From IMG/VR virus record IMGVR_UViG_3300025030_000042: DNA of 64,000 bases; one strand, 5' to 3'. The notes under the pieces were generated by a model. The model did no database searches. It saw only the letters and a program-made list of their open reading frames with translations, and was not told where the DNA came from. The translations under genes and the position numbers were made by a program. This DNA is from a virus. Lineage: Duplodnaviria > Caudoviricetes. Below, in pieces: positions 23,084-37,940 of this stretch (positions within the stretch are counted from its first letter, which is position 1; each line of letters begins with the position of its first letter).

Positions 23084-23118
23084 TAAAATCATTTACTTCT
23101 TTTGTGTCCGACAACCTC

Positions 23119-23361: not shown

Positions 23362-23390
23362 TTGACAAACACTCAACAATATTATATACT
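23362..23390 (+). promoter_or_regulatory. sigma70-type promoter
   Basis: TTGACA-17-TATACT; 11-bp inverted repeat at 23305-23329 upstream. Confidence 0.8.
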
Positions 23391-23396
23391 TGTGTT

Positions 23397-23866: not shown

Positions 23867-23867
23867 A

Positions 23868-24122: not shown

Positions 24123-24123
24123 A

Positions 24124-24324
24124 ATGATTTCAAAACCAACAAAGCCAAAAGCCGGCGATCTCATAAAACATATATCTTGTTCCAATCATGTTATGGTTCA
24201 TGAGATAGATGAAAAAGGTTTTGTTTATGTATTTCCAGATTTAAAGTCAACTTTTTGGACAAATCATTCGTTCAATTCATTTTATGATTATCGTAATTGT
24301 AAAATAGTAGTTCGGACAACATAA
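24124..24324 (+). CDS. K(V/I)GDL-family protein
   Basis: KAGDLI. Confidence 0.6.
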   Translation: MISKPTKPKAGDLIKHISCSNHVMVHEIDEKGFVYVFPDLKSTFWTNHSFNSFYDYRNCKIVVRTT

Positions 24325-24341
24325 AAATAAAGGAGATATAA

Positions 24342-24803
24342 ATGAACAGCCCGTTTAAACCAACTACAAAGGAATATATTACAGACGATAGGTTATTTAA
24401 AATTAATGAAGATTATATAACAGACGACGAAGAGAGCCCAGACTACTATGGACCTAAAACATTACCCATCGGAAGAGTATCTCTAAAAGAAATTATGGAT
24501 GCTTATAAAGATATAGATCCAGGTTGTGTTTATATTGAGGCGGGTTATGACGAGGGTTGGAATAAAGGAGAAAAACTTTACATTAAAATCCCAAAAACAG
24601 ATGAGATGTTTGCTGAACGGATGAAGAAATACGAAATAGAAATGGTTAAATATAACGAATGGTTGACACAACAAGAATATTGGAAAACTCCGGAAGGCAA
24701 AACAGAAAAACAAAGAATCAAAGAAGAGAAAAAGAAACAAAAACTTCTCAAAGAAATGGAAAAAATTCAAATAAAGTTAAATATATTGAAGGATGCGGAA
24801 TGA
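24342..24803 (+). CDS. hypothetical protein
   Basis: AAGGAG RBS; last plus-strand gene before convergence. Confidence 0.75.
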   Translation: MNSPFKPTTKEYITDDRLFKINEDYITDDEESPDYYGPKTLPIGRVSLKEIMDAYKDIDPGCVYIEAGYDEGWNKGEKLYIKIPKTDEMFAERMKKYEIEMVKYNEWLTQQEYWKTPEGKTEKQRIKEEKKKQKLLKEMEKIQIKLNILKDAE

Positions 24804-24886
24804 TAACAAATCGATCGCGGTTATCATAAAGAAAAAGAATGTTATCGATGCGTGGACACAACCGATACAACAATCGATAAGTGCGG

Positions 24887-25030
24887 TAAGTGGTCGATTG
24901 GGTAATGGGAGATATAAGAGAAATAAAGATAATAATGAAAAGAGAGAAACGAGCAGTAAATGAGAAGGAAGGAACGGTAAGGTCGTGTGTGGACGATAAG
25001 TGGACGATTGGATAATGGAAAGATAAGAGA
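24887..25030. repeat. imperfect purine-rich direct repeat pair (~34 bp, period 110)
   Basis: TAAGTGGTCGATTGGGTAATGGGAGATATAAGAGA vs TAAGTGGACGATTGGATAATGGAAAGATAAGAGA. Confidence 0.6.
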
Positions 25031-25148
25031 TAATGAAGATCGGGTGTGGACGGACGTTCGCGAACCAAACGGTTGTATTTCCGAAATAAAATAAATAAAA
25101 CCTTAAATCTGGAAAAATGGTCCGGGCGTTACGAATGGATATGCGCAC

Positions 25149-25316
25149 CCACTAGTGGCTACCCGAGTAGCCGGCTAATATACTATCCGGCTTCTGGACT
25201 TGCCGGCAATTCGACAAGCCACGGAAGTTGCGAAAGCCTGGCGACTCCGTTAGCCACGGCAAACCCGATAGCCGCCTGGCTACCAGACTTGCCGTGGCTG
25301 CAGTGTTAGCCGGCTA
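25149..25316. repeat. dense palindrome/inverted-repeat cluster
   Basis: CCACTAGTGG, TAGCCGGCTA x2, TTGCCGGCAA, AGCCACGGCAA/TTGCCGTGGCT; 8 TAGCC/GGCTA pentamers. Confidence 0.7.
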
Positions 25317-25821
25317 CCATCGCCTTGCGCAGCTTGCCAAGTGCCCGATGCTTTGCATTGCCTACGTCAATCTGCGAGATTCCCAGCATATCCGCGATAT
25401 CCTTGTTACGCTCGCCATTCAAGATCCACGTGAGCAAGCATTGCTCGTACTCGCTGAGAGACTGCATCGCCCTGCGGAGCCTATCAGAGTCCACTGCCGA
25501 TGCTAGTGCCTCTTCTGGCGTATTGGACTCGTCTGCTACTGCTGCCGCTTGATCGTCGCCTGCCACGGTCCTACGATGGCTGGCGCCCCGCAGATGGTCC
25601 ATGGTCGTCTGATATGCGACCATACCGCACCATGTTCCGAGCGATGCGCCACGGCTCGGATCGTACTTGTCAAGGGTTCCCTCGGCGAGTCTGAGGTATG
25701 TTGCTTGCACGCAATCATCACGATCCTGCAGGCGATTGAACTTGGCAAGCTGCTTGCTTACCAGGCCACAGATCAAGCCGTGGTATTTGCTGGCGACGGT
25801 CTGGAGGTTGGCAGTTTCCAT
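25306..25821 (-). CDS. ECF-type sigma70-family RNA polymerase sigma factor
   Basis: Region 2 DDCVQATYLRL..YDPSRGASLGTW; region 4 LSEYEQ..NKDIADMLGIS..AKHRALGKLRK. Confidence 0.9.
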   Translation of the reverse strand: METANLQTVASKYHGLICGLVSKQLAKFNRLQDRDDCVQATYLRLAEGTLDKYDPSRGASLGTWCGMVAYQTTMDHLRGASHRRTVAGDDQAAAVADESNTPEEALASAVDSDRLRRAMQSLSEYEQCLLTWILNGERNKDIADMLGISQIDVGNAKHRALGKLRKAMVAG

Positions 25822-25856
25822 TGTCGATCCCTTTCGTTTCGTTAGCGTCTGTAGCT

Positions 25857-25885
25857 ACTATGAACGATAGAGAATCGGTTGTCAA
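25857..25885 (-). promoter_or_regulatory. host-type sigma70 promoter of sigma gene
   Basis: TTGACA-17-CATAGT. Confidence 0.6.
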
Positions 25886-25950
25886 GCGTCAAAAGAAAAG
25901 TTTTTTCTCTATAGGCGCCCCGCAGAGACGTTTTCTGGAGTCGGGTGTTC

Positions 25951-26244
25951 TTATCGGGACCCTCGAAAAAAACGGTTATTCGCTCGAAGCCTACCGTGCT
26001 GAGACCGCTCGTAATGCTCGAGTGCCTGCGCAAGCTCCGAGCCTACGCGCCGCTCGTAAACGTCCCTGGCGAGCCATAGGAACGCCTGGCGTACCTCGGG
26101 AGTCAGCACGATCCCCGTTGCCCGATGGCGCCATACCTCGTGGCGAACATCCGATCGGGCGCGCCGGGCGGCCCACAAGCCGAGACAGACGGCGAGGAAT
26201 CCAACGGCGAGGGAAAGCGCAACAATCATTTCGATGGGATTCAT
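25951..26244 (-). CDS. membrane-anchored early protein
   Basis: N-terminal TM, AAAGGA RBS, own promoter. Confidence 0.7.
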   Translation of the reverse strand: MNPIEMIVALSLAVGFLAVCLGLWAARRARSDVRHEVWRHRATGIVLTPEVRQAFLWLARDVYERRVGSELAQALEHYERSQHGRLRANNRFFRGSR

Positions 26245-26276
26245 TGTTTATCGTCCTTTGTTGGTTCGTTCGCGAA

Positions 26277-26304
26277 GTTATACGATCGCCGCTGGGATTT
26301 ATTT
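26277..26304 (-). promoter_or_regulatory. phage promoter motif copy 1
   Basis: AAATA-N12-GATCGTATAAC. Confidence 0.8.
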
Positions 26305-26336
26305 GCTGCCGGGCACAAGAAAAAAGAACATTAACG

Positions 26337-26549
26337 CTATCCGTTCGATAGCGTTAATCGCTTCGAATCAAGTACATCGCATGCTCTGAGGAACCTATCC
26401 CGGTCGAATCGCGGGTTATCCACTTGGAATAGATCGGCTACATTGCCGATAATGCGCCAGATTGCCTTATCAGCGTCGGATCCTTCGTTTTCCAATATCA
26501 GCTCATGACGAAACATATCCGCAAACTTCTGATAGTCCTTTTTTGTCAT
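26337..26549 (-). CDS. early protein, DNPRFDRDRF family (paralog A)
   Basis: MTKKDYQKF..DNPRFDRDRFLRAC; start re-picked. Confidence 0.75.
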   Translation of the reverse strand: MTKKDYQKFADMFRHELILENEGSDADKAIWRIIGNVADLFQVDNPRFDRDRFLRACDVLDSKRLTLSNG

Positions 26550-26576
26550 CGGGAAGCCTTTCGTTGGGTTCGAAGG

Positions 26577-26604
26577 GTTATACGATCGTGCTAAAGGTTT
26601 ATTT
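26577..26604 (-). promoter_or_regulatory. phage promoter motif copy 2
   Basis: AAATA-N12-GATCGTATAAC. Confidence 0.8.
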
Positions 26605-26643
26605 GCTGCCGGACACAAGAAAAAAGAACACTTGATTAAGATC

Positions 26644-26978
26644 TCCTTAGAGCTAGATAGAAATTATTCTTTCTGGATAACCACCGAAAGAACCGGCTTT
26701 CAATGATATTCACTACTTACGAAAAGTCAAGTAGTTTAATGAAGAAACTCCCTAAGCGATGATAGAATGGTACCAACGAAAGGGCTAGCCGAAACAACCG
26801 ACTTTCAATGATATCAAGTGGTTATCCAGAAAGAACAATTTTGATTGACTTTTCCTTAGGGCTAGATAGAACGGTACCGAATGCATGCCGCCCGTAAACA
26901 AGCTGTTTTCAATGATATTCAATACTTACGAAAAGTCAAGTAGTTTAATGAAGATCTGCCCTAAGCGATGATAGAATG
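26644..26978. repeat. nested non-coding direct and inverted repeats
   Basis: 72-bp DR 26698-26769/26907-26978 (67/72); 24-bp IR 26661-26684/26818-26841 (1 mismatch); TTTCAATGATAT x3. Confidence 0.9.
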
Positions 26979-26981
26979 ATA

Positions 26982-27188
26982 TCACCGGCAGGGCACCCAC
27001 GTGGGCACGTCCTTCGAGCATGCTTTCAAAAATCGATCACGATCGAACCTCGCGCTGTCGGCCTGAAACAGATCAGCAGTTTTGCTAATAATGCGCCAGA
27101 CCACTGCGCGTTCATTGTCACCATCGGCGGCCACTAGTAACTCATGCTGAAACATATGGATAAACCGCTGGTAATCTTTCTTTGTCAT
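26982..27188 (-). CDS. early protein, paralog B of 26337..26549
   Basis: MTKKDYQRF..DSARFDRDRFLKAC. Confidence 0.75.
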   Translation of the reverse strand: MTKKDYQRFIHMFQHELLVAADGDNERAVVWRIISKTADLFQADSARFDRDRFLKACSKDVPTWVPCR

Positions 27189-27216
27189 TAGGGAACCTTT
27201 CGTTGGCGTTCGAAAA

Positions 27217-27244
27217 GTTATACGATCAAGGACGATCGATATTT
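27217..27244 (-). promoter_or_regulatory. phage promoter motif copy 3
   Basis: AAATA-N12-GATCGTATAAC. Confidence 0.8.
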
Positions 27245-27515
27245 CATTTTATTTTTTGTTCAATGATCTCGCGCGGTTGTCACTTTCTTTTTGATATGGT
27301 GAATTTTGGCGATCGGGGTACTATTTACTGTAAAATAGCGGTCCAATCGCCCCCTAACCGCTCCATTTACCCCATTTTCAATCAAAAATTCCCATCCTAC
27401 CCCAAACAGCGGGTGGCTACCAAGGGTAGTCAAAGGTTTATATATTTTTTCTATCGTAACTGCCTTGTCCGTTCTTACCCTGTTTGTTACGCCCCTTTCA
27501 TATTTTTTCTTTATG

Positions 27516-27899
27516 TTAACGCCGAACAATGATCGCGCCTTTCGCTTCCATTATCGTCAACCATACGTTAAGCCCAATCGAATCCGTACTTTTCAAAGAT
27601 GTTAAATCTCCATTCCATCTATGACCTTGCGTCGTTCCCTCATGTCCGATGCAACCTTCGAACAACGATCGCACATTATCATCCGGCAAAGCAAGATCGA
27701 GATTCGGATCTTCCCAGATATTCTTTACTGGATCGTTCGATTCGGTTAGCATCTTTTCCTTATCAACTAAAACCGGCGCTTGGCTTTCTTCGAGTCTCAA
27801 GGGTCCGCGTGAATACGTTCCAAATGACGATCGTCCTTTCTCATAATATCCAGCCAAGCCCTTGATCACAACGATCGGTTTATCATTCTTGGTTGGCAT
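27516..27899 (-). CDS. early hypothetical protein
   Basis: start re-picked after promoter copy 4, GAAGGA RBS. Confidence 0.7.
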   Translation of the reverse strand: MPTKNDKPIVVIKGLAGYYEKGRSSFGTYSRGPLRLEESQAPVLVDKEKMLTESNDPVKNIWEDPNLDLALPDDNVRSLFEGCIGHEGTTQGHRWNGDLTSLKSTDSIGLNVWLTIMEAKGAIIVRR

Positions 27900-27929
27900 T
27901 GAAAGATCCTTCTGTTGATTGCTTGTGGA

Positions 27930-27957
27930 GTTATACGATCGTGGATGGGTTTTATTT
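27930..27957 (-). promoter_or_regulatory. phage promoter motif copy 4
   Basis: AAATA-N12-GATCGTATAAC. Confidence 0.8.
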
Positions 27958-27958
27958 T

Positions 27959-28351
27959 TCATTTCTCCGAAACAAAATAGGGTCGCAATTCCCCTCGAAT
28001 ATCCCAATAATGTCCACTATGTGTTGCCAGATCGCAAACCTCTTTCGGACCATAGTCGAGCTTTTCGTAATAGTCCTCGCGATCCCTATGGGTCGAAACA
28101 ATCTTACCATCAGGCATCGTATAACAGAACACAATTTTGCGCGCAATCATATCGCGCGTTGCTTGCTTCCAACCATCGCAATAAGAAAAAACCCATTGCG
28201 GGCACTTTGCTTTTTTCAAGGATTCGGTGATCTCGCATTCCTCCTTATTGATATCGCTGGAAAGCATACCATAAATTTGTGCTTTGCTGTAAAGATCGGC
28301 AAGTTGTCGAATCGCACGATTTTGATGATTGTATGCAGTCTGGAATTTCAT
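27959..28351 (-). CDS. early hypothetical protein
   Basis: AAAGGA RBS, own promoter. Confidence 0.75.
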   Translation of the reverse strand: MKFQTAYNHQNRAIRQLADLYSKAQIYGMLSSDINKEECEITESLKKAKCPQWVFSYCDGWKQATRDMIARKIVFCYTMPDGKIVSTHRDREDYYEKLDYGPKEVCDLATHSGHYWDIRGELRPYFVSEK

Positions 28352-28381
28352 TTGCCGATCCTTTGTTGGATGGTTCGATCG

Positions 28382-28409
28382 GTTATACGATCGGGAGCGG
28401 TTTTTATTT
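28382..28409 (-). promoter_or_regulatory. phage promoter motif copy 5
   Basis: AAATA-N12-GATCGTATAAC. Confidence 0.8.
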
Positions 28410-28462
28410 TTGTTATCGCTCCCGATATCGTTATCCTTTGTCGCGCGCGCCTGGCGGGGCCA

Positions 28463-28735
28463 TCATCGCCGGCGCGATCCTCGGCCAAATTGGCCAAATG
28501 TTACCATTGTGGATGGGATCGCGTTAGCGATGAACTTTGCCATATCGCCGTACCAGTTTTGTGCGCGCGCTAGGCGAGAATATGGCAGGTTTTCAAAATT
28601 TTGCTTGAGATATTCCAATTCATCGCCGTCCGCTTGTATCTCTGTGACCAAATTTTCCGTATTCATAACTCTCAAGGTTTCGCCCACGTGCCATTGTACC
28701 TCTTTTCCGGAATTCAATATAATATAAAGTGCCAT
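28463..28735 (-). CDS. early hypothetical protein
   Basis: AAAGGA RBS, own promoter. Confidence 0.7.
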   Translation of the reverse strand: MALYIILNSGKEVQWHVGETLRVMNTENLVTEIQADGDELEYLKQNFENLPYSRLARAQNWYGDMAKFIANAIPSTMVTFGQFGRGSRRR

Positions 28736-28756
28736 CGGATGTTCCTTTGTTGGAAA

Positions 28757-28784
28757 GTTATACGATCGCCACTGGAGAATATTT
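28757..28784 (-). promoter_or_regulatory. phage promoter motif copy 6
   Basis: AAATA-N12-GATCGTATAAC. Confidence 0.8.
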
Positions 28785-28787
28785 GTT

Positions 28788-28970
28788 TTAACTCATCGCA
28801 GAATAAGCGATATGATTCTGCAGTGTTAGATCGGCTTCTCGTTTTGCCTCACTTTTGGTTCCAGCGGTCCATACGCTAACAACACACCGTCCGTAATGAT
28901 ACCAGTCGCAAAGCCAACCGCTATCCTTCTTTACCATTTTTAGAGTATATTGTTTCCTTTTGTTTTCCAT
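28788..28970 (-). CDS. early hypothetical protein
   Basis: start re-picked MENKRKQY. Confidence 0.6.
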   Translation of the reverse strand: MENKRKQYTLKMVKKDSGWLCDWYHYGRCVVSVWTAGTKSEAKREADLTLQNHIAYSAMS

Positions 28971-28978
28971 TGTTTTTT

Positions 28979-29152
28979 TTACTTCGCCTCTGTCTCTGTT
29001 TCTGACACGTTGAATCCCGTTTGCGTCAAGATTGCCCACAACGTTTTGACGTGCACGCTTTCGACCTTGTTTGCGTCAAGTTCATTCAGCCAGTTTCGCA
29101 AAATCTTTTGAAATTCCTCTCCGGTCATTTGACTTACATGTTTCCAAGCCAT
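28979..29152 (-). CDS. 57 aa early protein (not in track)
   Basis: MAWKHVSQMTGEEFQKILRNWLNELDANKV..; AAGGA RBS after promoter copy 7. Confidence 0.65.
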   Translation of the reverse strand: MAWKHVSQMTGEEFQKILRNWLNELDANKVESVHVKTLWAILTQTGFNVSETETEAK

Positions 29153-29183
29153 TGGATTGATCCTTGTTCGTTTCGTTCATAAG

Positions 29184-29211
29184 GTTATACGATCGTCGGC
29201 AGGATTTATTT
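29184..29211 (-). promoter_or_regulatory. phage promoter motif copy 7
   Basis: AAATA-N12-GATCGTATAAC. Confidence 0.8.
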
Positions 29212-29471
29212 CAAGCCTTCTTTCTTTTTGTTACCGCCGGAATTCCGGCCGCCGGAGACTTTCCTTGCTGCTCTGCTTCCGAATCCAAATGATCCAGAGC
29301 AATATCAACCACTTCGTTCTTTACCTTCGTTGTCGTGTTGTGCAAAGCCTTTAGATTGTTCCAGAAAATCGTCATATTCTGGCGTGCCAAAGCCGATCGG
29401 GCTTGCACCAGCGACTTTTCGATGGTTTCGAGAAGTTCCACAAGCGCCGTCTTTTCGTTTAGGGTGAGCAT
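29211..29471 (-). CDS. early coiled-coil protein
   Basis: 86 aa, own promoter. Confidence 0.7.
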   Translation of the reverse strand: MLTLNEKTALVELLETIEKSLVQARSALARQNMTIFWNNLKALHNTTTKVKNEVVDIALDHLDSEAEQQGKSPAAGIPAVTKRKKA

Positions 29472-29503
29472 TGTTGTCTTCTTTCGTTTATGTGTTGTGG
29501 TGG

Positions 29504-29531
29504 GTTATACGATCAATGCTGGAATTTATTG
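29504..29531 (-). promoter_or_regulatory. phage promoter motif copy 8
   Basis: CAATA-N12-GATCGTATAAC. Confidence 0.75.
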
Positions 29532-29948
29532 CCGATAAATGAAGAACATTTCGCCGTCAAGTTCCGCTTCGTTTTCCTCGCCGTCATAACCTGAAATGAA
29601 ATGCCCTCTGCCATCGGCAGAAATCGCATCATTGACAAAGTGATCAAAATCCTTGATCAGCGCTCGGATCGTATCGTTGGCATCCTCGCACTTTTCCTTT
29701 TGAAACGATTGAATCATTTTCTCCGCTTCCAAGGGTAGATCCGTATGTGACAGAATGAAACCGGTATTGAATGCCCAAAAACTTTGCTCGATTTGTTCCC
29801 TGCAACGCGTATTGGCTTCGTCATTGGTCAACACAAGAAAGTTTTCCCGTTCGCCGGAAACTTCAAAGCAATCGCTATCATAATCGTTTCGTGAAACATC
29901 CTCAAGATCACAATCGAGAAACTTTGCGAGGGCTTTTGCTTTTGTCAT
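29526..29948 (-). CDS. very acidic early protein, possible DNA mimic/antirestriction
   Basis: about 32 D/E vs 14 K/R in 140 aa; GRGHFISGYDGEE. Confidence 0.6.
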   Translation of the reverse strand: MTKAKALAKFLDCDLEDVSRNDYDSDCFEVSGERENFLVLTNDEANTRCREQIEQSFWAFNTGFILSHTDLPLEAEKMIQSFQKEKCEDANDTIRALIKDFDHFVNDAISADGRGHFISGYDGEENEAELDGEMFFIYRQ

Positions 29949-29995
29949 TGGATTAAAACCTTTTGGGCGAATACTTGATATAGCTTGCGTGGCAT
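29945..29995 (-). pseudogene. 16-codon remnant duplicating the start of 31615..32007
   Basis: MPRKLYQVFAQKVLIQ*, stop overlaps next ATG. Confidence 0.7.
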
Positions 29996-30034
29996 TTGAA
30001 AAACCTTTGTTGTGGTGTTCGAAGGGTTATACGA

Positions 30035-30400
<366 letters not shown>

Positions 30401-30425
30401 TGTGCTTGTTCCTTTGCTGCGGTGT

Positions 30426-30941
30426 TCAATGAGTTATACGATCGTCGACATATTTTCTTTTGAAGAATCTTTCGAGTCCTACCTTAAAAAAGAAATTGTG
30501 ATCAATGTCATTTGCTTTATAGGTTTCGCGCATACAATTAAAAAGAACATGGCTTAACTCGTGAATAAATGTAATGTATAGTTTATATTCCGTGCCGTTG
30601 GAGATTTTGATCGTTCTTTCATATGGTATCGTAACTCCGTTACATTGTTCAACATTATCTGAACACAGCACTGAATCTGAATCAAAGAATGTTATCTGTG
30701 TTATCGGAAGTTCTTCGTTTGCCATACAATCGAGCGTGGCATCATTAAAAACATTTCTCCAGAAATCAAGCGTTTCTTTTGTCCACACTTCGATCATTGT
30801 CTGCTTTGGACCGTTGATATTCTCCAATTTAACGTTCGAACCGTAACTTGTTCTATAGATATGATACGGTTCGATCGGATCGATTATTTCACAGCCGACA
30901 CAACAAATAACCACAATCAAAATATTTTGTTTATTGACCAT
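30426..30941 (-). CDS. putative lipoprotein with HExxH motif
   Basis: VVICCVGC signal/lipobox; FIHELSH; start re-picked. Confidence 0.6.
   Translation of the reverse strand: MVNKQNILIVVICCVGCEIIDPIEPYHIYRTSYGSNVKLENINGPKQTMIEVWTKETLDFWRNVFNDATLDCMANEELPITQITFFDSDSVLCSDNVEQCNGVTIPYERTIKISNGTEYKLYITFIHELSHVLFNCMRETYKANDIDHNFFFKVGLERFFKRKYVDDRITH
30433..30460 (-). promoter_or_regulatory. phage promoter motif copy 10
   Basis: AAAGA-N12-GATCGTATAAC. Confidence 0.7.
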
Positions 30942-31320
30942 AGACATTACCCTTGAAAACATAAAGATCATAAGATCCAAAAGACTTTGATTTTTCCGAA
31001 AGTTTGTCTCCCAATTCCCCAAGTCCACGATCCCAGAACCCTGCGCCATGGCCATTGCGCGTCAACCAAAAATCGTGTCCAGCGTGGCTTTCATCGTATT
31101 CCTCATAATATTCCATAAGTTCGACTTTTGCATACTCTTGAAAATCTTCACATTCCTTGATCATTTTTTTTAGAATCTTTGAATCAATATCCTCAATTCC
31201 ATAGTTATCTTCTAGTGATGCTTCCATTTCGCCGTCTTCCGACCATTCGGTCGAAGACCATAAAGCACGCTCAAGATAGCCTGTCACAAAATCACTTAGA
31301 TTATCAAGATCGATCGTCAT
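30931..31320 (-). CDS. acidic early protein (GHDFWLTRNGHGAGFWD motif)
   Basis: about 30 D/E vs 12 K/R; own promoter. Confidence 0.75.
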   Translation of the reverse strand: MTIDLDNLSDFVTGYLERALWSSTEWSEDGEMEASLEDNYGIEDIDSKILKKMIKECEDFQEYAKVELMEYYEEYDESHAGHDFWLTRNGHGAGFWDRGLGELGDKLSEKSKSFGSYDLYVFKGNVYGQ

Positions 31321-31351
31321 TTTGTTTCTCGCTTGTTGGGTTGCTTGTGGA

Positions 31352-31379
31352 GTTATACGATCGAACCTGGAGATTATTC
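31352..31379 (-). promoter_or_regulatory. phage promoter motif copy 11
   Basis: GAATA-N12-GATCGTATAAC. Confidence 0.75.
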
Positions 31380-31568
31380 GCTAGAATCTTCGATAAATGA
31401 ATAATTTTTATACAATGAGCCATCTATATATTTTATCATAATATAACTAAGTTTATTTCTATTTTCTCCAAAAAGAATACCATATAAACTCAAGATCGAT
31501 TCTGGATTACCAACAACACTATTGCACGAAGAATCTTGTTCGTCATATGCCCATTGCAGTATTAACAT
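31374..31568 (-). CDS. hypothetical protein
   Basis: AAGGA RBS; AT-rich. Confidence 0.55.
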   Translation of the reverse strand: MLILQWAYDEQDSSCNSVVGNPESILSLYGILFGENRNKLSYIMIKYIDGSLYKNYSFIEDSSE

Positions 31569-31614
31569 TTTCTTTGTTTTCCTTACTTTTTTAGAAAAAC
31601 AAATTTAACTTTGT

Positions 31615-32007
31615 TTACTCGCTATCCGGAATTTCATTTGTCAGAACATCATAGAAAATCTCTTTAATGTAATCTTTGATATCGTTTCGATTCTTTCCGG
31701 AAACCTTCACATTAATCTGATTGTCTAGCGAAGCGGTAACGGTAACTCTGTGGTTTGTCCAATCATCATAAAAACCATTTTCGTTCATATGATGAAATGC
31801 GGTAAAAAACATAAGCTTTTCGCCAGTTGAATAATCAAGATCGATCGTTGTTCCAGAGTCAAATCCCGATCCGCTGGGCATACGATTCTTAACAAGTTCT
31901 TCGATCTTTGTGGTATGGTTATCAAACCATACGTCATTGTCGTGCTTTTCGCAGTTACGGCGCGCCTGAACTGTGCTGGCGAATACTTGATATAGCTTGC
32001 GTGGCAT
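31615..32007 (-). CDS. early hypothetical protein (PSGSGFD..FHHM motif)
   Basis: 130 aa, own promoter. Confidence 0.75.
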   Translation of the reverse strand: MPRKLYQVFASTVQARRNCEKHDNDVWFDNHTTKIEELVKNRMPSGSGFDSGTTIDLDYSTGEKLMFFTAFHHMNENGFYDDWTNHRVTVTASLDNQINVKVSGKNRNDIKDYIKEIFYDVLTNEIPDSE

Positions 32008-32037
32008 TTGAAAAACCTTTGTTGTGGTGTTCGAAGG

Positions 32038-32065
32038 GTTATACGATTCAGGCTTAGAAACATTT
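32038..32065 (-). promoter_or_regulatory. phage promoter motif copy 12 (variant)
   Basis: AAATG-N12-AATCGTATAAC; GATC lost. Confidence 0.7.
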
Positions 32066-32283
32066 TAGCAATCCGCTTTGATACTGGTCAATGCTGCTTC
32101 CATGAATGAAGTTGTTTGTTTCTTTTTCTTTAGAATGGCGCGCATTTGTGCTTCTCGACGCTTCAGCCAATCGATCCAATCGAGTGTACAACGAAGACAT
32201 AAGGCGCAAGTTTCGGTCCATTTGTGCCCCGTGGCGGGGTGGAAAGGACCGCGACAGATTAAACATTGCGTTGGGCAAGTCAT
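32065..32283 (-). CDS. small zinc-finger early protein
   Basis: CxxC..H..CxxC. Confidence 0.65.
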   Translation of the reverse strand: MTCPTQCLICRGPFHPATGHKWTETCALCLRCTLDWIDWLKRREAQMRAILKKKKQTTSFMEAALTSIKADC

Positions 32284-32300
32284 TTTATTGTCTCCGGAGA

Positions 32301-32328
32301 GTTATACGATCGTCAATCGGATTTATTT
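32301..32328 (-). promoter_or_regulatory. phage promoter motif copy 13
   Basis: AAATA-N12-GATCGTATAAC. Confidence 0.8.
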
Positions 32329-32771
32329 CTTTTTTGTTGTGCCCGTCGCAAACATCGGGAATCGCTCGCATATGGCAGGACCGATCCATTTTGATACTCT
32401 TTTGCTATACTATCAATCAAATTGGACGGCAGTGTTTTCGCAATGATAGTTGCCCAACGATTGATATCACGATCGGACAAGGGAGGTTGAATTGGCGCAA
32501 TGTCGCTTGCTTGCGATTCTAGGGACCTGTGCGCCTCGTGGGGGCGTCGGGAAACATTTTGTGATGCGTTATGTCCATTTTGCTTAAATCGCCTCTCACG
32601 AGAAAAAAACACTCTCTTTTTTATAATCCTTTCCGCACACCAAAAAGAAATCCATCCCACGACAAATCCAATGAAATATATGCTCGTTGTCCAAGATGGA
32701 GATCCCCAAGAAAATGCCCAACAAATCAAAAAAGCTGGCGATACGATCGAAAACAATCTTAAAAGTTTCAT
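32313..32771 (-). CDS. membrane protein (2 N-terminal TM)
   Basis: 152 aa ORF. Confidence 0.5.
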   Translation of the reverse strand: MKLLRLFSIVSPAFLICWAFSWGSPSWTTSIYFIGFVVGWISFWCAERIIKKRVFFSRERRFKQNGHNASQNVSRRPHEAHRSLESQASDIAPIQPPLSDRDINRWATIIAKTLPSNLIDSIAKEYQNGSVLPYASDSRCLRRAQQKRNKSD

Positions 32772-32794
32772 TAGTTTTCATTTGGTTTTGTTTT

Positions 32795-33004
32795 TCAAAA
32801 TTCCGGCATATCCGGTTTGATCATTCCCAAAAGCAACGCTTGTTCCGCTCCAATAACCTTGTGCTCGCCACACTCCGGACAATCGTAGCCTTCCGCGTCA
32901 GGTTCGGTTGTGTCACGAGTGAAATCTTGACAAACCGGACACCAGCCTTGATATGAATCAACGGCATCTTGATAGTCTTCGAAGGAAACGACGATGGTTT
33001 TCAT
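32795..33004 (-). CDS. acidic zinc-ribbon protein
   Basis: GWCPVC..EPDAEGYDCPECG. Confidence 0.75.
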   Translation of the reverse strand: MKTIVVSFEDYQDAVDSYQGWCPVCQDFTRDTTEPDAEGYDCPECGEHKVIGAEQALLLGMIKPDMPEF

Positions 33005-33005
33005 T

Positions 33006-33215
33006 TCACTTCTTCCATATTTTTATAGTTTCTTCAGTAGCGTCTTCAAGTGGACACCAATCAGGACAACTATCAATATCTTTAATCTCTTTTTTGTTCA
33101 TAGCAAAACAAATGTGGTATTTTGCTTCTTGATAAAAATGATGATCGGCGGTATATACTTCCTTTCTATTCCTACAATACATACAACTTGGTACAAGAAT
33201 CACCATTTGCTTCAT
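33006..33215 (-). CDS. Cys-rich hypothetical protein
   Basis: CxxC..C..CPDWCPL; start re-picked. Confidence 0.65.
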   Translation of the reverse strand: MKQMVILVPSCMYCRNRKEVYTADHHFYQEAKYHICFAMNKKEIKDIDSCPDWCPLEDATEETIKIWKK

Positions 33216-33430
33216 TGCCCCTGCTCCGCGCAACTTCCGGAGCAAACGGAACGAGGTTCGCCCATATCGCACTCGAAACGGTCATCATCATCATTGTTTT
33301 CGTCAAGTTCATCGATCATCTCGAATGTCTCTTGACGATTTCGAGAACGATTGTAAGCCACCTTGCTTTGATGGGCGAGATCCCACTTGTTTCGAATCGG
33401 ATGAAGATTCTTGTGTCGATTGATTTTCAT
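33212..33430 (-). CDS. early hypothetical protein
   Basis: follows promoter copy 14. Confidence 0.6.
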   Translation of the reverse strand: MKINRHKNLHPIRNKWDLAHQSKVAYNRSRNRQETFEMIDELDENNDDDDRFECDMGEPRSVCSGSCAEQGQ

Positions 33431-33483
33431 TGTCGTTCTTTCATTTGTTTCGTTAGTAATTCGTTAGTAAGTAGGTTCGTTAT

Positions 33484-33511
33484 GTTATACGATCGAAACT
33501 GAAGATTATTT
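33484..33511 (-). promoter_or_regulatory. phage promoter motif copy 14
   Basis: AAATA-N12-GATCGTATAAC. Confidence 0.8.
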
Positions 33512-33733
33512 CTTATATTTTCTTTCAATGCGCGCCATAATATTCAACGCTACATCTTCCGAAATCTCTCTATTGAAATGTTCCATAACTCCAGCAAATC
33601 GCACGGCATCGTCAATGATCCATCCTTCGTCAAAAAATCGTCCAAAATCGTCAGTAAACATACCTTCGCACTCAGGATCCAAAAGGGGCGGCAAACGGCG
33701 CCACACTTCTGTTATATATTCGTTTTTATTCAT
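33506..33733 (-). CDS. hypothetical protein
   Basis: 75 aa. Confidence 0.65.
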   Translation of the reverse strand: MNKNEYITEVWRRLPPLLDPECEGMFTDDFGRFFDEGWIIDDAVRFAGVMEHFNREISEDVALNIMARIERKYKK

Positions 33734-33737
33734 TTTT

Positions 33738-33947
33738 TCAAACCTTCTGCGTTTCGACTGCTTCAGCAGCCTTGATCAAAGCCATCGCAAGTTCACGGGC
33801 TTGTTCGGGTTTCAAAGATGCTGATTCGTGATTATTCAAAGACAATAGAACCAAATAATACGATTTTGAAGGCAATACGCACGCACAGTGATTTTCCGAC
33901 CACATAAAATCCATATGCTCTCCGCGCTTCAAATCCTTGATAATCAT
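33738..33947 (-). CDS. hypothetical protein
   Basis: LKPEQARELAMALIKAA helix motif. Confidence 0.65.
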   Translation of the reverse strand: MIIKDLKRGEHMDFMWSENHCACVLPSKSYYLVLLSLNNHESASLKPEQARELAMALIKAAEAVETQKV

Positions 33948-34110
33948 TGGTCATTTCCTTTGTCAGAGATTGTTACGAATATATTCCCTTAGATTCTTCA
34001 AGGATTGAGAAAGTTCGTGCATCCATTCAAGTGTGTTTTTTGTTTGCGACGGTGGTTTATTATCCATTTTGAATGCCTCTTTTCACATCTTTATCAATCC
34101 CTCAAGAATC

Positions 34111-34142
34111 GCACCGTCCGACCATCATCGATCGGACGGTGC
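34111..34142 (-). terminator. strong GC hairpin after 34153..34689
   Basis: 11-bp IR GCACCGTCCGA/TCGGACGGTGC; weak U tract. Confidence 0.55.
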
Positions 34143-34152
34143 CTTGTTGTCA

Positions 34153-34689
34153 TTACGCAACCTTCTTGTTCTTGCGTGATCCGCTTGCAGGCGGGGGTGT
34201 CAACACTTCGTTTGCCAGACGATCCAGAAACTCGTGACGATTTGCCTCGTTCGCTTCCTTGGCGCCTTCCTGGCGACCCGACACGCTGTAACAGTATCGC
34301 GTCAGAAGCTGTCCAAGATGCGTCAACGAATCTCCAAGGGTCTCGACACTACGATCCCATTCCGAATCGATCAACGCGCCGGCGTGCTGAACAAGGATCC
34401 GTTCGGCCTGTGCGCGATCCTCAACGGTCTTGCTCGTAACGCTCGGACCCACACCATAAGCGCGCTTTGGCTTTGCAACGGACTGACAAGCCTCAACCAA
34501 TCGCTCTGCATCTCGAAGTAGATCTACCTTCTCAAGATCGATCCCCTCACTCTCCGAAACCTGAATCAGATCTCGCATATTGAAGTTGGTGCCTTTGATA
34601 ACGTTCAGGGCAGACACCAACTTGCGAGCACGCTTCTCAACATCACTCAACGGTCCAGTCTTCGTTCCTGCAGTACGTCCACGTGGCAT
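34153..34689 (-). CDS. GC-rich early protein with AT-hook-like N-terminus
   Basis: MPRGRTAGTK; basic C-terminal tail. Confidence 0.7.
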   Translation of the reverse strand: MPRGRTAGTKTGPLSDVEKRARKLVSALNVIKGTNFNMRDLIQVSESEGIDLEKVDLLRDAERLVEACQSVAKPKRAYGVGPSVTSKTVEDRAQAERILVQHAGALIDSEWDRSVETLGDSLTHLGQLLTRYCYSVSGRQEGAKEANEANRHEFLDRLANEVLTPPPASGSRKNKKVA

Positions 34690-34801
34690 GTTACTCTACC
34701 TTTCTTGCGTCATTGACGCTTGTTGTTGCTCCGACATTGGAGCGGTTATCCCATCTCTTCTCTCGTTCCCGTTCCCGTTCGTCTTCGTCTTCTCACATTG
34801 T

Positions 34802-34829
34802 ATTATACGATCGAACCTTGTCAATATTT
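34802..34829 (-). promoter_or_regulatory. phage promoter motif copy 15
   Basis: AAATA-N12-GATCGTATAAT. Confidence 0.8.
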
Positions 34830-35096
34830 TTTTGTTCGTAACGACGGAAAAAGTTTTTTCGTGATCTCGCAATTGTCTTTACCAACGGTCCGAATCTTCA
34901 TCAAATAGCGCGCGTGCTCGAATGCTTCCTCGCGTGTGGAAAAAATTCCATAGACTTGACGCGGGGATAATCCGCCGACAGTCTGGATCATTAGACTGAT
35001 GAAGTTACTTTCGAAAGCAATATCATATAATTCACTATCTTTTGTGGGATAGGTTACGATCCAAAAGGTGAGCAGTAGATCTCTGGAGATTTTCAT
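34821..35096 (-). CDS. hypothetical protein
   Basis: 91 aa. Confidence 0.6.
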   Translation of the reverse strand: MKISRDLLLTFWIVTYPTKDSELYDIAFESNFISLMIQTVGGLSPRQVYGIFSTREEAFEHARYLMKIRTVGKDNCEITKKLFPSLRTKKY

Positions 35097-35101
35097 TGTT
35101 A

Positions 35102-35362
35102 TTATTCTTTTTCCGGAATCTTATATGTTGCTGGTTTGATTTCTTTTCTATGCCCACAACATTTACAAGTTTCAAATTCAGCAGGAGTATTTTCTTCTAG
35201 TTCAATATAATACTCGTCGCCATTTCCATTTGTTTGATCTACTTCGTTGAACCATACGCACAACTCCCGACAATACGGGCAACCCTCTTCATAATCATAA
35301 GCATCTTCTGTCCATTGATGACCATTTTTACAAAGAAGTTGTGTATATCCTTTGTATGACAT
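35102..35362 (-). CDS. zinc-ribbon protein
   Basis: CKNGH, CPYC, CKCCGH. Confidence 0.7.
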   Translation of the reverse strand: MSYKGYTQLLCKNGHQWTEDAYDYEEGCPYCRELCVWFNEVDQTNGNGDEYYIELEENTPAEFETCKCCGHRKEIKPATYKIPEKE

Positions 35363-35381
35363 TTTTTGTTATCTCTAGTGA

Positions 35382-35409
35382 GTTATACGATCCACATTGT
35401 TAAATATTT
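35382..35409 (-). promoter_or_regulatory. phage promoter motif copy 16
   Basis: AAATA-N12-GATCGTATAAC. Confidence 0.8.
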
Positions 35410-35410
35410 G

Positions 35411-35479
35411 TTCCTGGGAAAGGATTTGAACCTTTACTTGGGATGATCAGTCCTGCCTCTACCATTGGGCTACCCAGGA
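35411..35479 (-). tRNA. tRNA-like element with 3-bp anticodon stem (loop CUGAUCA)
   Basis: TCCTGGG/CCCAGGA, GCC-CAATGGTAGA-GGC, GGA-CTGATCA-TCC, AAAGG-TTCAAAT-CCTTT; ends A-CAA. Confidence 0.65.
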
Positions 35480-35513
35480 AAAAGTAAACCGGGGTAGTTA
35501 TTGTCTCTACCCC
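35480..35513 (-). terminator. intrinsic terminator
   Basis: GGGGTAG/CTACCCC hairpin then TTTACTTTT. Confidence 0.65.
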
Positions 35514-35529
35514 AGTCTGGTTTGTTATA

Positions 35530-35835
35530 TTACGCAAGATTGAATCCCTTCAGAGTTAGAAAGTAACTCGTCTCATCACGAGCACTCTGAACCACATATC
35601 CCAACTCGACATACCGCGCCAGGGTCGGGGCACTGAAAAGACTCTCGTCGAAGCCCTGCCCCGCCATCAAGTCACCGTTACGAATCAGCACGCGAAGTTT
35701 GCTGACACGATCCACCTTGATACCTGCCGGGCGACCACGCTTGCGCCTCGGAAACTCCACAACACCGCTCTGCTCGATGCTCTGCTCGACACTCTGTACC
35801 GGAACCACCCGAAGCTGAAGATTCATCGTGTCCAT
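35530..35835 (-). CDS. GC-rich early protein with AT-hook
   Basis: RRKRGRPAG; GGAG RBS. Confidence 0.7.
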   Translation of the reverse strand: MDTMNLQLRVVPVQSVEQSIEQSGVVEFPRRKRGRPAGIKVDRVSKLRVLIRNGDLMAGQGFDESLFSAPTLARYVELGYVVQSARDETSYFLTLKGFNLA

Positions 35836-35865
35836 TTGCTCCTGCCTTTCTTGTTTGTTCGCTCG

Positions 35866-35893
35866 ATTATACGATCGGACCTGAAGAATATTT
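35866..35893 (-). promoter_or_regulatory. phage promoter motif copy 17
   Basis: AAATA-N12-GATCGTATAAT. Confidence 0.8.
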
Positions 35894-35905
35894 TGTTTTC
35901 TTTCT

Positions 35906-36157
35906 TTAGTTCTCGCCCTTCTTTGGTGACATTGACACTTTTCTCATTTCAACCAAGTGTTTCGCTACCTTGACTGTTTCGACCATTTCATATACGAAGT
36001 TGAACTCTTCAATCAATCCCTTTTGTTTAATGATTTCCAAAATATTCCGAAGATCAACATACCGATAAAGATCGGTGGTTTCGCTACTATGAATGAGCAT
36101 AATTTTAACATTACAACCTTCGATCAATAGATCGAGATGCGATGATTCTTTTTCCAT
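35906..36157 (-). CDS. hypothetical protein
   Basis: 83 aa. Confidence 0.65.
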   Translation of the reverse strand: MEKESSHLDLLIEGCNVKIMLIHSSETTDLYRYVDLRNILEIIKQKGLIEEFNFVYEMVETVKVAKHLVEMRKVSMSPKKGEN

Positions 36158-36166
36158 TGCTCGCCT

Positions 36167-36385
36167 TCAACTTTCTTGTCGCAAATCATTCATCATACAT
36201 TTAGAAATGGATATCTGTAGTTGTTGACACGGGCGCATCAAAAAACTTTCGTCATACCATTTAATACAATCGTCTGAAAACCAATAAACTTCATATCTCC
36301 TTTCTTGATAAGAAACAACGATCCCTAGTGATTCGTCATCATAGATTCTGGAAATGAAATCACCGATGGCAAACTTTCGATTCAT
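36167..36385 (-). CDS. K(V/I)GDL-family protein
   Basis: FAIGDFI..LGIVV..YEVYWF. Confidence 0.7.
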   Translation of the reverse strand: MNRKFAIGDFISRIYDDESLGIVVSYQERRYEVYWFSDDCIKWYDESFLMRPCQQLQISISKCMMNDLRQES

Positions 36386-36386
36386 T

Positions 36387-36728
36387 TTACTTTCCTTCAT
36401 AAATCTTCTTTAATCTTTCAAATTCGGCAAGTTCCTGCTGCTTTTGTTGTTCAACTTGTTCTTTTTCTTTTGTAATCCTATCCTGAAACTCTTCGTCTGT
36501 TTCCAATCGTCGACCACAAACTTTTACAACAACCGATTCTTCACGATCATAAGCAGATTCATAACCTTTTTCAATATCAATACGAACCTCGTCTTCGTCG
36601 ATATTTTCTTTTGCCGCCCATTCTCTGAGAATAAGGCAAGTTTTTTCTATTGCTTTCAAAGTTTCGAAACCGCTTACACCAAAATAATAGGGATGATTTG
36701 GCATATAGATAGTTTTATGTTTTTTCAT
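36387..36728 (-). CDS. hypothetical protein, paralog of 39851..40186
   Basis: ETDEE..RLKKIYEGK; start re-picked. Confidence 0.7.
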   Translation of the reverse strand: MKKHKTIYMPNHPYYFGVSGFETLKAIEKTCLILREWAAKENIDEDEVRIDIEKGYESAYDREESVVVKVCGRRLETDEEFQDRITKEKEQVEQQKQQELAEFERLKKIYEGK

Positions 36729-36820
36729 CTGGAAAACACTCCTCTTAAGATCCATCCTAATACAAACGCCAACGCAAGAAATATCATTGATATCTTTATT
36801 GAATTTTGTTCGTCGTTCAT
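36725..36820 (-). CDS. 31 aa membrane peptide
   Basis: AGGAGG RBS after promoter copy 18; MNDEQNSIKISMIFLALAFVLGWILRGVFSR. Confidence 0.6.
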   Translation of the reverse strand: MNDEQNSIKISMIFLALAFVLGWILRGVFSR

Positions 36821-36846
36821 TTTGACACTTCCTCCTTCTACCACGG

Positions 36847-36874
36847 ATTATACGATCTATGTAGCAAAATTTTT
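36847..36874 (-). promoter_or_regulatory. phage promoter motif copy 18
   Basis: AAAAA-N12-GATCGTATAAT. Confidence 0.7.
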
Positions 36875-37071
36875 CAGAAAATCGTCAGCAACGGTCGCTT
36901 TAAAGCATTTTGTTCGGCGGAAAGCAACTTTTGTGCCAAACTTTTTTTCATATTTGTGATCCGGCTTACGAAAAAAAAATCGTCCGACGAGAAATATTTC
37001 CTTGACCGCAGAGGTAGAAACGCTATCCTATAATCGTATCATTCAGTAACCGTCGTCACCAAGGAGACACC

Positions 37072-37260
37072 ATGAAAGTCCGCGACCTGATCGAGACCCT
37101 CAAAACAATGAACCCCGAGAAACCCCTTCAATGTCGCCACGTTAAGTTTGCCCATTGCGGTTCAACCAAGATCGAATCGGTATTCCAGATTACAGTCGTT
37201 GACCGAAACGGGGAACTCTTGCTCTCCGATTCTGAAGATCTCACCGACGAGAATCAGTAG
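37072..37260 (+). CDS. small hypothetical protein (MKVRDLIETL)
   Basis: AAGGAG RBS; TTGACC-16-TATCCT upstream. Confidence 0.7.
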   Translation: MKVRDLIETLKTMNPEKPLQCRHVKFAHCGSTKIESVFQITVVDRNGELLLSDSEDLTDENQ

Positions 37261-37326
37261 CCCACCCCACAATCATCTCCCCCGCATTGTAAAAAATTCA
37301 CTCTGTTGGGGGAGATCTTTCCCGCA

Positions 37327-37354
37327 TTGACAAGTCCTTTCTCCATCGTATAAT
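37327..37354 (+). promoter_or_regulatory. consensus sigma70 promoter
   Basis: TTGACA-16-TATAAT, preceded by ATCG. Confidence 0.8.
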
Positions 37355-37397
37355 CCAATAGTAAATCACTTTTGGTAAAGAAAGAGAGGATGAAACG

Positions 37398-37730
37398 ATG
37401 GCAAAAGGATTCAAATGTAATGTGTGCGGGTCGATGACGGTCCACAACAAGGGATCACACCAGCAGTGTTCCACGTGTCGCACGGTATCGTGGAGTTGGG
37501 AACAGGGAGTTCGTGGTCTTGGTTCGGGTCGGGGGCATAAGTGCCCTTGGTGCACGCTTCCGACGCTTCATATTGTCAACACATATAGTTGTGGAGACGG
37601 AACGGAACTGGATATTTCGCGTTGTTCGACCTGTAACTACAGGTCGATCACCGATGCCAACTGGAATCAAAAGCCGGACGGAAAGGGGGTAGAAGATCGA
37701 ACGGAAATAGAAGAAAAACATCTCTCATAA
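37398..37730 (+). CDS. multi zinc-ribbon protein
   Basis: four CxxC pairs. Confidence 0.7.
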   Translation: MAKGFKCNVCGSMTVHNKGSHQQCSTCRTVSWSWEQGVRGLGSGRGHKCPWCTLPTLHIVNTYSCGDGTELDISRCSTCNYRSITDANWNQKPDGKGVEDRTEIEEKHLS

Positions 37731-37745
37731 TCTCCCGCCCATATA

Positions 37746-37940
37746 TCATTCAACAATATGCTCGATGTTACATTCGGTCAACATCGAGCATATTCTTTTT
37801 TTATCTTCTTTATCAATACAATAAGTTAGAATATCATAAATCTTTGATTTGAATTTGGGATAACCAAGATTTGTCATTGTTCGAATGGTTTCATTAGAGA
37901 CTTTCACAAGAACCAAAACAGTTTCTTTATTTTGTTTCAT
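37746..37940 (-). CDS. hypothetical protein
   Basis: 64 aa. Confidence 0.55.
   Translation of the reverse strand: MKQNKETVLVLVKVSNETIRTMTNLGYPKFKSKIYDILTYCIDKEDKKRICSMLTECNIEHIVE

Follow-up and report, generated by a model that had tools for sequence, protein, structure and literature searches.

The stretch of DNA analyzed here (the window) comprises 64,000 nucleotides (nt) of IMG/VR record IMGVR_UViG_3300025030_000042, part of the ~211-kb genome of a large groundwater phage (Caudoviricetes). Within it lies an island of raised G+C content (GC), 12.6 kb in total length, that is packed with small genes and holds both a gene for a sigma factor of the extracytoplasmic function (ECF) type and 18 copies of a promoter-like element on a single strand, referred to below as private promoters.

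Composition and gene content of the island

Within the window, GC is 0.439 in the block from 25,100 to 37,760 and 0.333 outside it (in the backbone), and 500-nt windows average 0.436 ± 0.058 inside and 0.334 ± 0.042 outside (Mann-Whitney p = 8e-12). Both edges are sharp: on the left, GC rises from 0.337 to 0.534 between adjacent 1-kb windows (24,001–25,000 and 25,001–26,000) or, at 300-nt resolution, from 0.34 (24,700–24,999) to 0.56–0.62 (25,150–26,200), and on the right it drops from 0.507 (37,450–37,749) to 0.323 (37,750–38,049). All codon positions are raised (GC1/2/3 of 0.518/0.377/0.450 in the island versus 0.444/0.314/0.269 in the backbone), as is intergenic DNA (0.416). The interior is a mosaic, in which third-position GC (GC3) spans 0.22 to 0.66 from gene to gene and two GC-poor stretches (30.4–31.7 kb and 35.9–36.85 kb) are backbone-like (0.31–0.37). 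Island and backbone alike strongly avoid the tetranucleotides CATG, TGCA, AATT, GGCC, GTAC, ACGT, and AGCT.

The island sits where a plus-strand backbone array (ending at 24.8 kb) meets a minus-strand array (running from 64 to 37.75 kb), and it comprises 31 small genes on the minus strand, a single tRNA-Ile(GAT), and two genes that diverge from them on the plus strand, with a median protein length of 89 amino acids (aa). There is about one private promoter per 1.8 genes, and a Shine-Dalgarno 4-mer precedes 26 of the 33 genes; we claim no excess in the latter over the backbone set (12 of 37), whose gene starts are unrefined and which lacks small genes. An earlier note on this DNA had described a compositionally distinct block at 25,150–36,900 that begins with a GC jump at ~25.1 kb, includes a sigma gene, and consists almost entirely of small minus-strand genes, most of which have a promoter of their own and a strong ribosome-binding site. 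These features hold, as does the start of the block, but its end does not, as GC-rich DNA runs to 37.75 kb, and the block is not uniform.

Coordinates of the features are collected in Table 1.

Table 1. Features of the island and its edges, in window coordinates
Feature	Coordinates	Strand	Remarks
Compositional island	25100..37760	.	GC 0.439 vs 0.333
GC-rich, near-invariant hairpin element	25140..25300	-	Left edge; directly downstream of sigma stop codon
ECF-type (group 4) sigma, 171 aa	25306..25821	-	GC 0.57, GC3 0.65; Pfam, TIGR02937
Sigma70-like promoter TTGACA-17-CATAGT	25857..25885	-	Directly upstream of sigma; kept in four lineages
97-aa protein, N-terminal transmembrane helix	25951..26244	-	Directly upstream of sigma; 68–75% identical in L010, L011
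Private promoter array, 18 copies	26277..36874	-	Motif scan and alignment
GATCGTATAA(C/T) box starts (lower coordinate)	26277, 26577, 27217, 27930, 28382, 28757, 29184, 29504, 30026, 30433, 31352, 32038, 32301, 33484, 34802, 35382, 35866, 36847	-	
Intrinsic terminator, 12-bp stem and T-run	26330..26358	-	After 70-aa gene, then directly P26277
70-aa helical protein	26337..26549	-	Paralogue of 26982–27188; two sigma70-like promoters and private P26577 upstream
Control region free of open reading frames, two ~209-bp direct repeats	26632..26994	.	Better conserved in relatives than coding DNA
TTGACT-16-TATCAT promoters	26912–26939, 26703–26730	-	One per ~209-bp repeat
68-aa three-helix protein	26982..27188	-	Conserved in all relatives
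89-aa protein	27260..27529	-	55–78% aa identity in relatives
Variable cargo, 26 small ORFan genes	27516..36820	-	
Individual cargo genes	27516–27899, 27959–28351, 28463–28735, 28979–29152, 29211–29471, 29526–29948, 30035–30400, 30426–30941, 30931–31320, 31374–31568, 31615–32007, 32065–32283, 32313–32771, 32795–33004, 33006–33215, 33212–33430, 33506–33733, 33738–33947, 34153–34689, 34821–35096, 35102–35362, 35530–35835, 35906–36157, 36167–36385, 36387–36728, 36725–36820	-	
140-aa protein	29526..29948	-	phrog_15770
70-nt exact repeat, copy 1	29966..30035	-	Matches 31978–32047
171-aa putative lipoprotein	30426..30941	-	Lipobox VGC, HELSH metallopeptidase-like motif
129-aa protein	30931..31320	-	phrog_1915
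70-nt exact repeat, copy 2	31978..32047	-	Start of gene 31615–32007
tRNA-Ile (anticodon GAT)	35410..35479	-	Inside island
SH3-like backbone-type minigene	36167..36385	-	GC 0.35; downstream of private P36847
62-aa gene	37072..37260	+	GC3 0.62; weaker sigma70-like promoter TTGACC-16-TATCCT; divergent from array
Perfect sigma70 consensus promoter TTGACA-16-TATAAT	37327..37354	+	
110-aa protein, four CxxC pairs (zinc-ribbon-like)	37398..37730	+	Candidate immediate-early gene
Hairpin and T-run terminator	37745..37800	.	Right edge; read from sequence, not in terminator scan list; GC drop

Sigma gene and promoter array

The sigma gene is the last gene of the minus-strand array. Its product has the two domains expected of an ECF sigma factor (Pfam Sigma70_r2 at residues 12–81 and r4/r4_2 at 113–166) and matches the sigma70-ECF profile TIGR02937 with 73.5 bits against a cutoff of 42.9. 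The protein belongs to an orphan clade: beyond three relatives with 78–80% aa identity, the best match among 1.84 billion representatives has an E value of 1e-14, and the nearest distant sigma (P0125) is located among small ORFans. No match was found when the sigma protein was searched with tblastn against the INPHARED phages.

The bipartite private promoter, AAAT-N13-GATCGTATAA(C/T), occurs in 18 copies, all on the minus strand and all within 26,277–36,857. A scan of the window for GATCGTATAAC with one mismatch allowed returned 21 matches where 1.1 are expected, namely the 18 promoter copies and three stray single-mismatch matches; in 13 of the 18 copies, AAAT and the GATCG box are spaced by exactly N13, and a looser form, AAW-N17-CGTATAA, is matched by 16 of them (0.75 expected). 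When aligned, the unit consists of AAAT(A), 13 nt, and GATCGTATAAC, followed in most copies by a CGAAC/CA-rich leader, AAAGGA, and an ATG ~25–35 nt downstream.

Rewritten as AAAT-N16-CGTATA, the element matches ECF-sigma promoters in its spacing and in its CGT -10 box. Bacterial ECF sigmas employ promoters with a CGT box at -10, which has been called an ECF hallmark (PMC9723704); the SigW promoter, for instance, is TGAAACTTT...CGTATA (PMC8769915). The T at -7 that sigma70 requires is a C in 14 of the 18 copies, and the remaining 4 end in T. Judged by these sequence features, the 18 promoters form a private ECF-type class and not a host sigma70-type one.

Host-type signals are present as well. 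Promoters of the form TTGACA-N16-18-TAnnnT number 15 in the window, against 3.9 ± 2.0 expected, and in the backbone they are correctly oriented; Bacteroidota-type promoters are not enriched in the window. Because the canonical promoters are enriched and the Bacteroidota-type ones are not, the main sigma factor of the host would appear to read a signal other than the 18 private promoters. In the island, sigma70-like promoters lie at these sites only: before the sigma gene, twice in the repeat region at 26.63–26.99 kb, across the private promoter at 34.8 kb, and before the two plus-strand genes; the island genes behind such promoters have GC3 values (0.51–0.65) among the island's highest.

A metagenome scan with AAAT-N13-GATCGTATAAY, too loose a pattern, was uninformative, the matches listed being single chance ones, and IMG/VR scans with the promoter-plus-leader pattern, the RNA ligase, and the sigma protein gave one chance match and no relatives. 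The 70-nt exact repeat extends from the -10 of the promoter through the leader to include 10 codons at the gene start, and its two copies appear to mark recombination or duplication at the level of single cassettes.

As a separate observation, GATC stands directly upstream of the -10 in every private promoter, and the window encodes two adjacent DNA methyltransferases (phrog_111 and phrog_359; 57,656–58,823, minus strand); methylation-sensitive promoter activity is conceivable.

Between the sigma gene and the cargo lie several conserved features. The protein encoded directly upstream of sigma is a conserved membrane-anchored protein of 83–97 aa, for which Pfam and NCBIfam profile searches gave no anti-sigma domain match; that the 97-aa protein acts as an anti-sigma factor is a guess. 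The AlphaFold model of the 68-aa protein (three helices; predicted local distance difference test [pLDDT] score of 81) has no PDB match at E < 1. In the control region, each ~209-bp repeat also has a back-to-back plus-strand TGATAGAAT element (an extended -10). These plus-strand promoters would give RNA antisense to the gene at 26,982–27,188.

Pfam, NCBIfam, and PHROG yielded no function for nearly all cargo proteins, which are thus ORFans. Homologues of the phrog_15770 protein occur mostly in Bacillus phage records of ~157–159 kb, with two lying less than 4 kb from where the record begins, and the phrog_1915 protein is widespread in phages (343 records), among them Caulobacter phages C1 and C2, which have it in their terminal repeats (its single-sequence model, with a pLDDT of 53, is too poor for a structure search). 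The putative lipoprotein is an atlas lead only (lipoprotein / BSP peptidase, score 0.92/0.86), and the island further encodes five small CxxC (zinc-ribbon-like) proteins and one basic protein with a GRP motif. A 101-aa cargo protein is AT-hook-like. Behind P36847 stand, besides the SH3-like minigene, a gene (36,387–36,728) that is a paralogue (36% aa identity) of the backbone gene at 39,860–40,171; with backbone-type genes behind a private promoter, the extent of the regulon and that of the GC-rich DNA are therefore not identical. A (GAGAGT)n tandem repeat at 30,069–30,164 corresponds to an (ES)n run in the gene at 30,035–30,400. Relative to the window, the L002 assembly has a single 42-bp indel, for which this repeat is the likely site.

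Relatives and junctions

The relatives available for comparison are three short contigs of one metagenome bin (L010, L011, and L012), which together with the window make four lineages. In all four, the sigma70-like promoter before the sigma gene is kept, and the next promoter upstream of the sigma operon is a private one, a layout that points to autoregulation. The private motif is unchanged in the relatives, with coding DNA only 71–77% identical. The low-GC flank is 90–93% identical between the window and the relatives, so that the left edge is also a jump in divergence.

L010 and L011 come from one sample: their flanks are 99–100% identical, their sigma DNA is 56–86% identical in 100-nt windows, and their farther-upstream genes have no homologue among the island proteins of the window. 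Because the flank is near-identical while the sigma DNA and the cargo differ, the left junction joins diverged island alleles with different cargo to a shared flank.

At four-fold degenerate sites of the sigma gene, the four lineages differ by 43–57%, which is near saturation, and GC at these sites is 0.61–0.72 in every lineage. Since aa identity is 78–80% despite such differences, the sigma gene is under purifying selection. The kept four-fold GC and the motif avoidance common to island and backbone together speak against a recent foreign insert and suggest that the composition is maintained, be it through selection, through exchange within a pool of genes with higher GC, or through GC-biased repair at a hot spot of recombination. 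INPHARED nucleotide searches with the island and with the flank returned no match, and RNA-ligase relatives (50–59% identity) are not syntenic and are uninformative as to presence or absence of the island.

The junctions themselves recur widely. Contigs that encode the sigma protein occur in 38 of the collection's blocks, and nine fetched loci from different samples (at least eight assemblies), including contigs of 131–211 kb, match the window across the left junction at 99.8–100% identity. Four more runs, from four studies, have contigs that span the left or right junction without differences. Breaks of contigs within the block fall at the 70-nt exact repeat (two assemblies) and at the (GAGAGT)n tandem repeat. 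The assemblies are circularly permuted around the block, and contig word-depth, itself a weak gauge, does not double there; nothing points to a fixed terminal repeat.

Higher-depth contigs of other runs join 22,378 to 37,797 and 24,758 to 31,569, with sides of 21–22 nt. These joints are uninterpretable, as the short sides lie in AT-rich SH3-like minigene sequence, and they probably reflect paralogy or other phages, not deletion of the island.

At the left edge, the ~160-nt hairpin element forms a long hairpin of 17 + 4 bp with further stems (consensus of -74 kcal/mol). It is near-invariant between lineages that differ by 25% in sigma coding DNA and shows no covariation, variation being almost nil; candidate roles are those of a terminator complex, of a small RNA, and of a signal for recombination or packaging. 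The adjoining DNA at 24,804–25,100 is noncoding, purine rich on the plus strand, and conserved at 90–93% in the relatives; it contains two copies of GATAAGTGG(A/T)CGATTGG(A/G)TAATGG...ATAAGAGA, and a contig of one assembly stops at 24,951. Rfam gave the tRNA as its sole match. The terminator at the right edge is common to the island and the converging backbone genes.

Interpretation and known systems

On balance, we favor the reading that the block is an island of accessory genes, insulated in its transcription from the rest of this large groundwater phage and expressed in the delayed-early period by a phage sigma factor acting at the 18 private promoters. Host RNA polymerase with its primary sigma factor would read a few canonical promoters (TTGACA-17-CATAGT before the sigma gene, the two TTGACT-16-TATCAT promoters, and TTGACA-16-TATAAT before the zinc-ribbon gene), and the 171-aa ECF-type sigma would be made from such a host-read promoter. 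The phage sigma would direct host core polymerase to the 18 AAAT-N16-CGTATAA(C/T) promoters, each followed by a CA-rich leader and a strong ribosome-binding site, with transcription expected to start 6–9 nt downstream of CGTATAAC, and ~30 small genes would be switched on as a delayed-early wave. Because the private promoters are not of the host sigma70 type, most of the block would come on after the phage sigma. The private promoter upstream of the sigma operon would provide positive feedback, and related phages may exchange cassettes one by one at the conserved promoter and leader sequences. The cargo plausibly consists of takeover, exclusion, or counter-defence proteins.

Several points weigh against this reading. 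What ties the sigma factor to the promoters is limited to adjacency, shape, and co-conservation, and because both are conserved in the relatives without covariation, the comparison holds no signal of specificity. The -35 element is AAAT(A), not the AAC usual for ECF sigmas. Confinement of the motif is seen within the 64-kb window of a ~211-kb genome, and among the public runs that hold island DNA, no RNA run is listed. Because the cargo genes are nearly all ORFans, their role in takeover or counter-defence is argued from architecture.

The proposed mechanism mirrors that of phage phiEco32/SU10, where the gene for the ECF sigma gp36 stands behind a sigma70 promoter of its own and the protein directs host core polymerase to promoters of the form tAATGTATAtA (PMC4281155). 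The likeness to these phages (Kuravirus) lies in an ECF-type phage sigma with a host-type promoter and in a private promoter class with GTATA just upstream of the start site, its reading by the sigma factor being a prediction in the present case. The differences are that phiEco32 has about six such promoters, which serve middle and late genes including virion genes, whereas here 18 serve one hypervariable island of tiny accessory genes; moreover, the island sigma has no detectable close kin among sampled sigmas, and its presumed -35 is AAAT(A). Bacterial ECF regulons such as that of Bacillus subtilis SigW (TGAAAC-N16-CGTATA) likewise combine a two-domain sigma, an N16 spacer, and a CGTATA -10, and they too have a promoter of the cognate type ahead of the sigma operon. 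Unlike these, the island has a -35 without the AAC core, no recognizable anti-sigma, and a regulon of phage ORFans rather than envelope-stress genes.

The variable cargo also recalls the hyperplastic regions of T4-like phages, where variable small open reading frames lie between conserved blocks and a short conserved regulatory sequence per frame serves as a recombination point at which unrelated genes are swapped (PMC4122927, PMC2839356). Here, too, the motif is kept while the cargo differs in L010 and L011, and a promoter/leader segment is repeated over 70 nt. The promoter early stem-loop (PeSL) elements of those phages, however, are a terminator stem-loop plus a host-type early promoter, whereas the repeat unit of the island is an ECF-type promoter plus leader, with one clear terminator-promoter composite (26,358–26,277), and the island is compositionally distinct.

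Phage sigmas with private promoters are known from few cultured phages, and what is notable here is that this known strategy of a phage with its own sigma factor coincides with a compositionally distinct, hypervariable island, in which the whole putative circuit, from host promoter to phage sigma to 18 private promoters to cargo, can be read from sequence. Were the pairing true, it would supply a compact, portable sigma/promoter pair orthogonal to sigma70 (a possible tool), ~30 genes of a huge, uncultured phage as candidates for takeover or counter-defence, and a test case for composition decoupled from the rest of a viral genome.

A more far-reaching proposal, which we put forward tentatively, is that the locus serves as a cassette rack: the private sigma and the promoter/leader unit would let the phage insert, swap, and co-express fast-changing takeover or counter-defence genes without dependence on backbone regulation, with GC being no relic but actively maintained through selection on early translation or through GC-biased repair in a recombination hot spot. 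If so, composition would betray a viral locus made hypervariable by recombination.

It is unlikely, in our judgment, that the private promoters are read without the phage sigma, either by an infection-induced host ECF (stress) sigma or by sigma70 redirected by a phage activator at the AAATA box (~-32), as by MotA/AsiA at T4 middle promoters, with the phage ECF sigma serving other genes. The AAATA box is indeed located where a MotA box would be, the -10 part overlaps TATAA(C/T) (with T as the final base in 4 of the 18 copies), an identical ATCGTATAAT -10 occurs in the consensus promoter on the plus strand at 37,327, and bacterial ECF sigmas use the CGT class. Yet sigma70 would be ill matched to the C at -7 in 14 of the 18 copies, the motif is found, within the window, nowhere but in the island, where the sigma gene lies as well, and the private promoter preceding the sigma operon in four lineages is the pattern of autoregulation; Pfam, NCBIfam, and PHROG profile searches detected no MotA- or AsiA-like protein in the island.

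The earlier note had compared the block to the host-takeover module that phage SPO1 carries in its terminal redundancy, and had proposed that GC-rich coding tunes the first-expressed genes to a GC-rich host before phage tRNAs accumulate. The promoters of the SPO1 module are host-sigma promoters. That module spans ~12 kb, with ~26 small genes that are grouped into numerous short operons and have strong promoters and ribosome-binding sites, and is thought to serve takeover; its genes are produced early, and its promoters are typical of highly expressed genes (PMC6873191). The architectural half of the parallel stands, given a dense block of 33 small genes with 18 + 5 promoters, and an immediate-early reading gains from two cargo genes whose homologues in other phages lie in terminal repeats or close to the start of the record, from the high four-fold-site GC of the sigma gene across diverged lineages, and from the GC3 of the genes behind sigma70-like promoters.

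We nevertheless consider an immediate-early, terminally redundant module of this kind improbable. A private ECF-type class predominates over host-type promoters, so early expression can be upheld for the handful of genes with sigma70-like promoters but not for most of the block; the assemblies are circularly permuted, the coverage doubling that the earlier note had looked to for a terminal repeat is absent from the (weak) contig word-depth, and the island proteins showed no homology to those of the SPO1 module. As a general rule, GC tuning of first-expressed genes finds no support: backbone genes with canonical promoters have GC3 values of only 0.20–0.37, island values range from 0.22 to 0.66 under one promoter class, all codon positions and intergenic DNA are shifted, and the phage tRNA lies inside the island itself. 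Some selection on composition is possible in view of the four-fold GC of the sigma gene. A GC island with small genes, then, need not be a first-expressed region or a terminal repeat.

Recent acquisition from a GC-richer phage, bacterium, or mobile element, with the GC as an unameliorated relic, seems very improbable to us. Such an origin would account for the sharpness of both edges, for the raised GC1, GC2, GC3, and intergenic GC, and for the jump in divergence at the left edge (flank 90–93% versus island 71–77%). Against it, profile searches of the island proteins revealed neither an integrase nor a recombinase or homing nuclease, a donor was found among neither bacteria nor phages (the sigma protein and a 178-aa GC-rich gene having no relatives outside the lineage), the tetranucleotide avoidance of the backbone is common to the island, and the GC step and high four-fold GC are kept in four lineages at near-saturated synonymous divergence.

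An assembly chimera of two organisms, which the earlier note had named as its own refutation and for which the GC step alone speaks, is refuted by contigs spanning both junctions, identical in at least eight assemblies of different samples, bridged in four further runs, and shared at the same position by diverged relatives.

Two backbone genes on the minus strand deserve mention. A PurZ/PurA-like adenylosuccinate-synthetase homologue is encoded at 61,603–62,640 (phrog_1211, E = 1.5e-54), and if it is a true PurZ, 2-aminoadenine might replace adenine in this phage. A GroEL-like chaperonin is encoded at 48,984–50,546 (phrog_5725, E = 3e-136), with its best phage relatives, at ~41% identity, in Flavobacterium and Vibrio phages.

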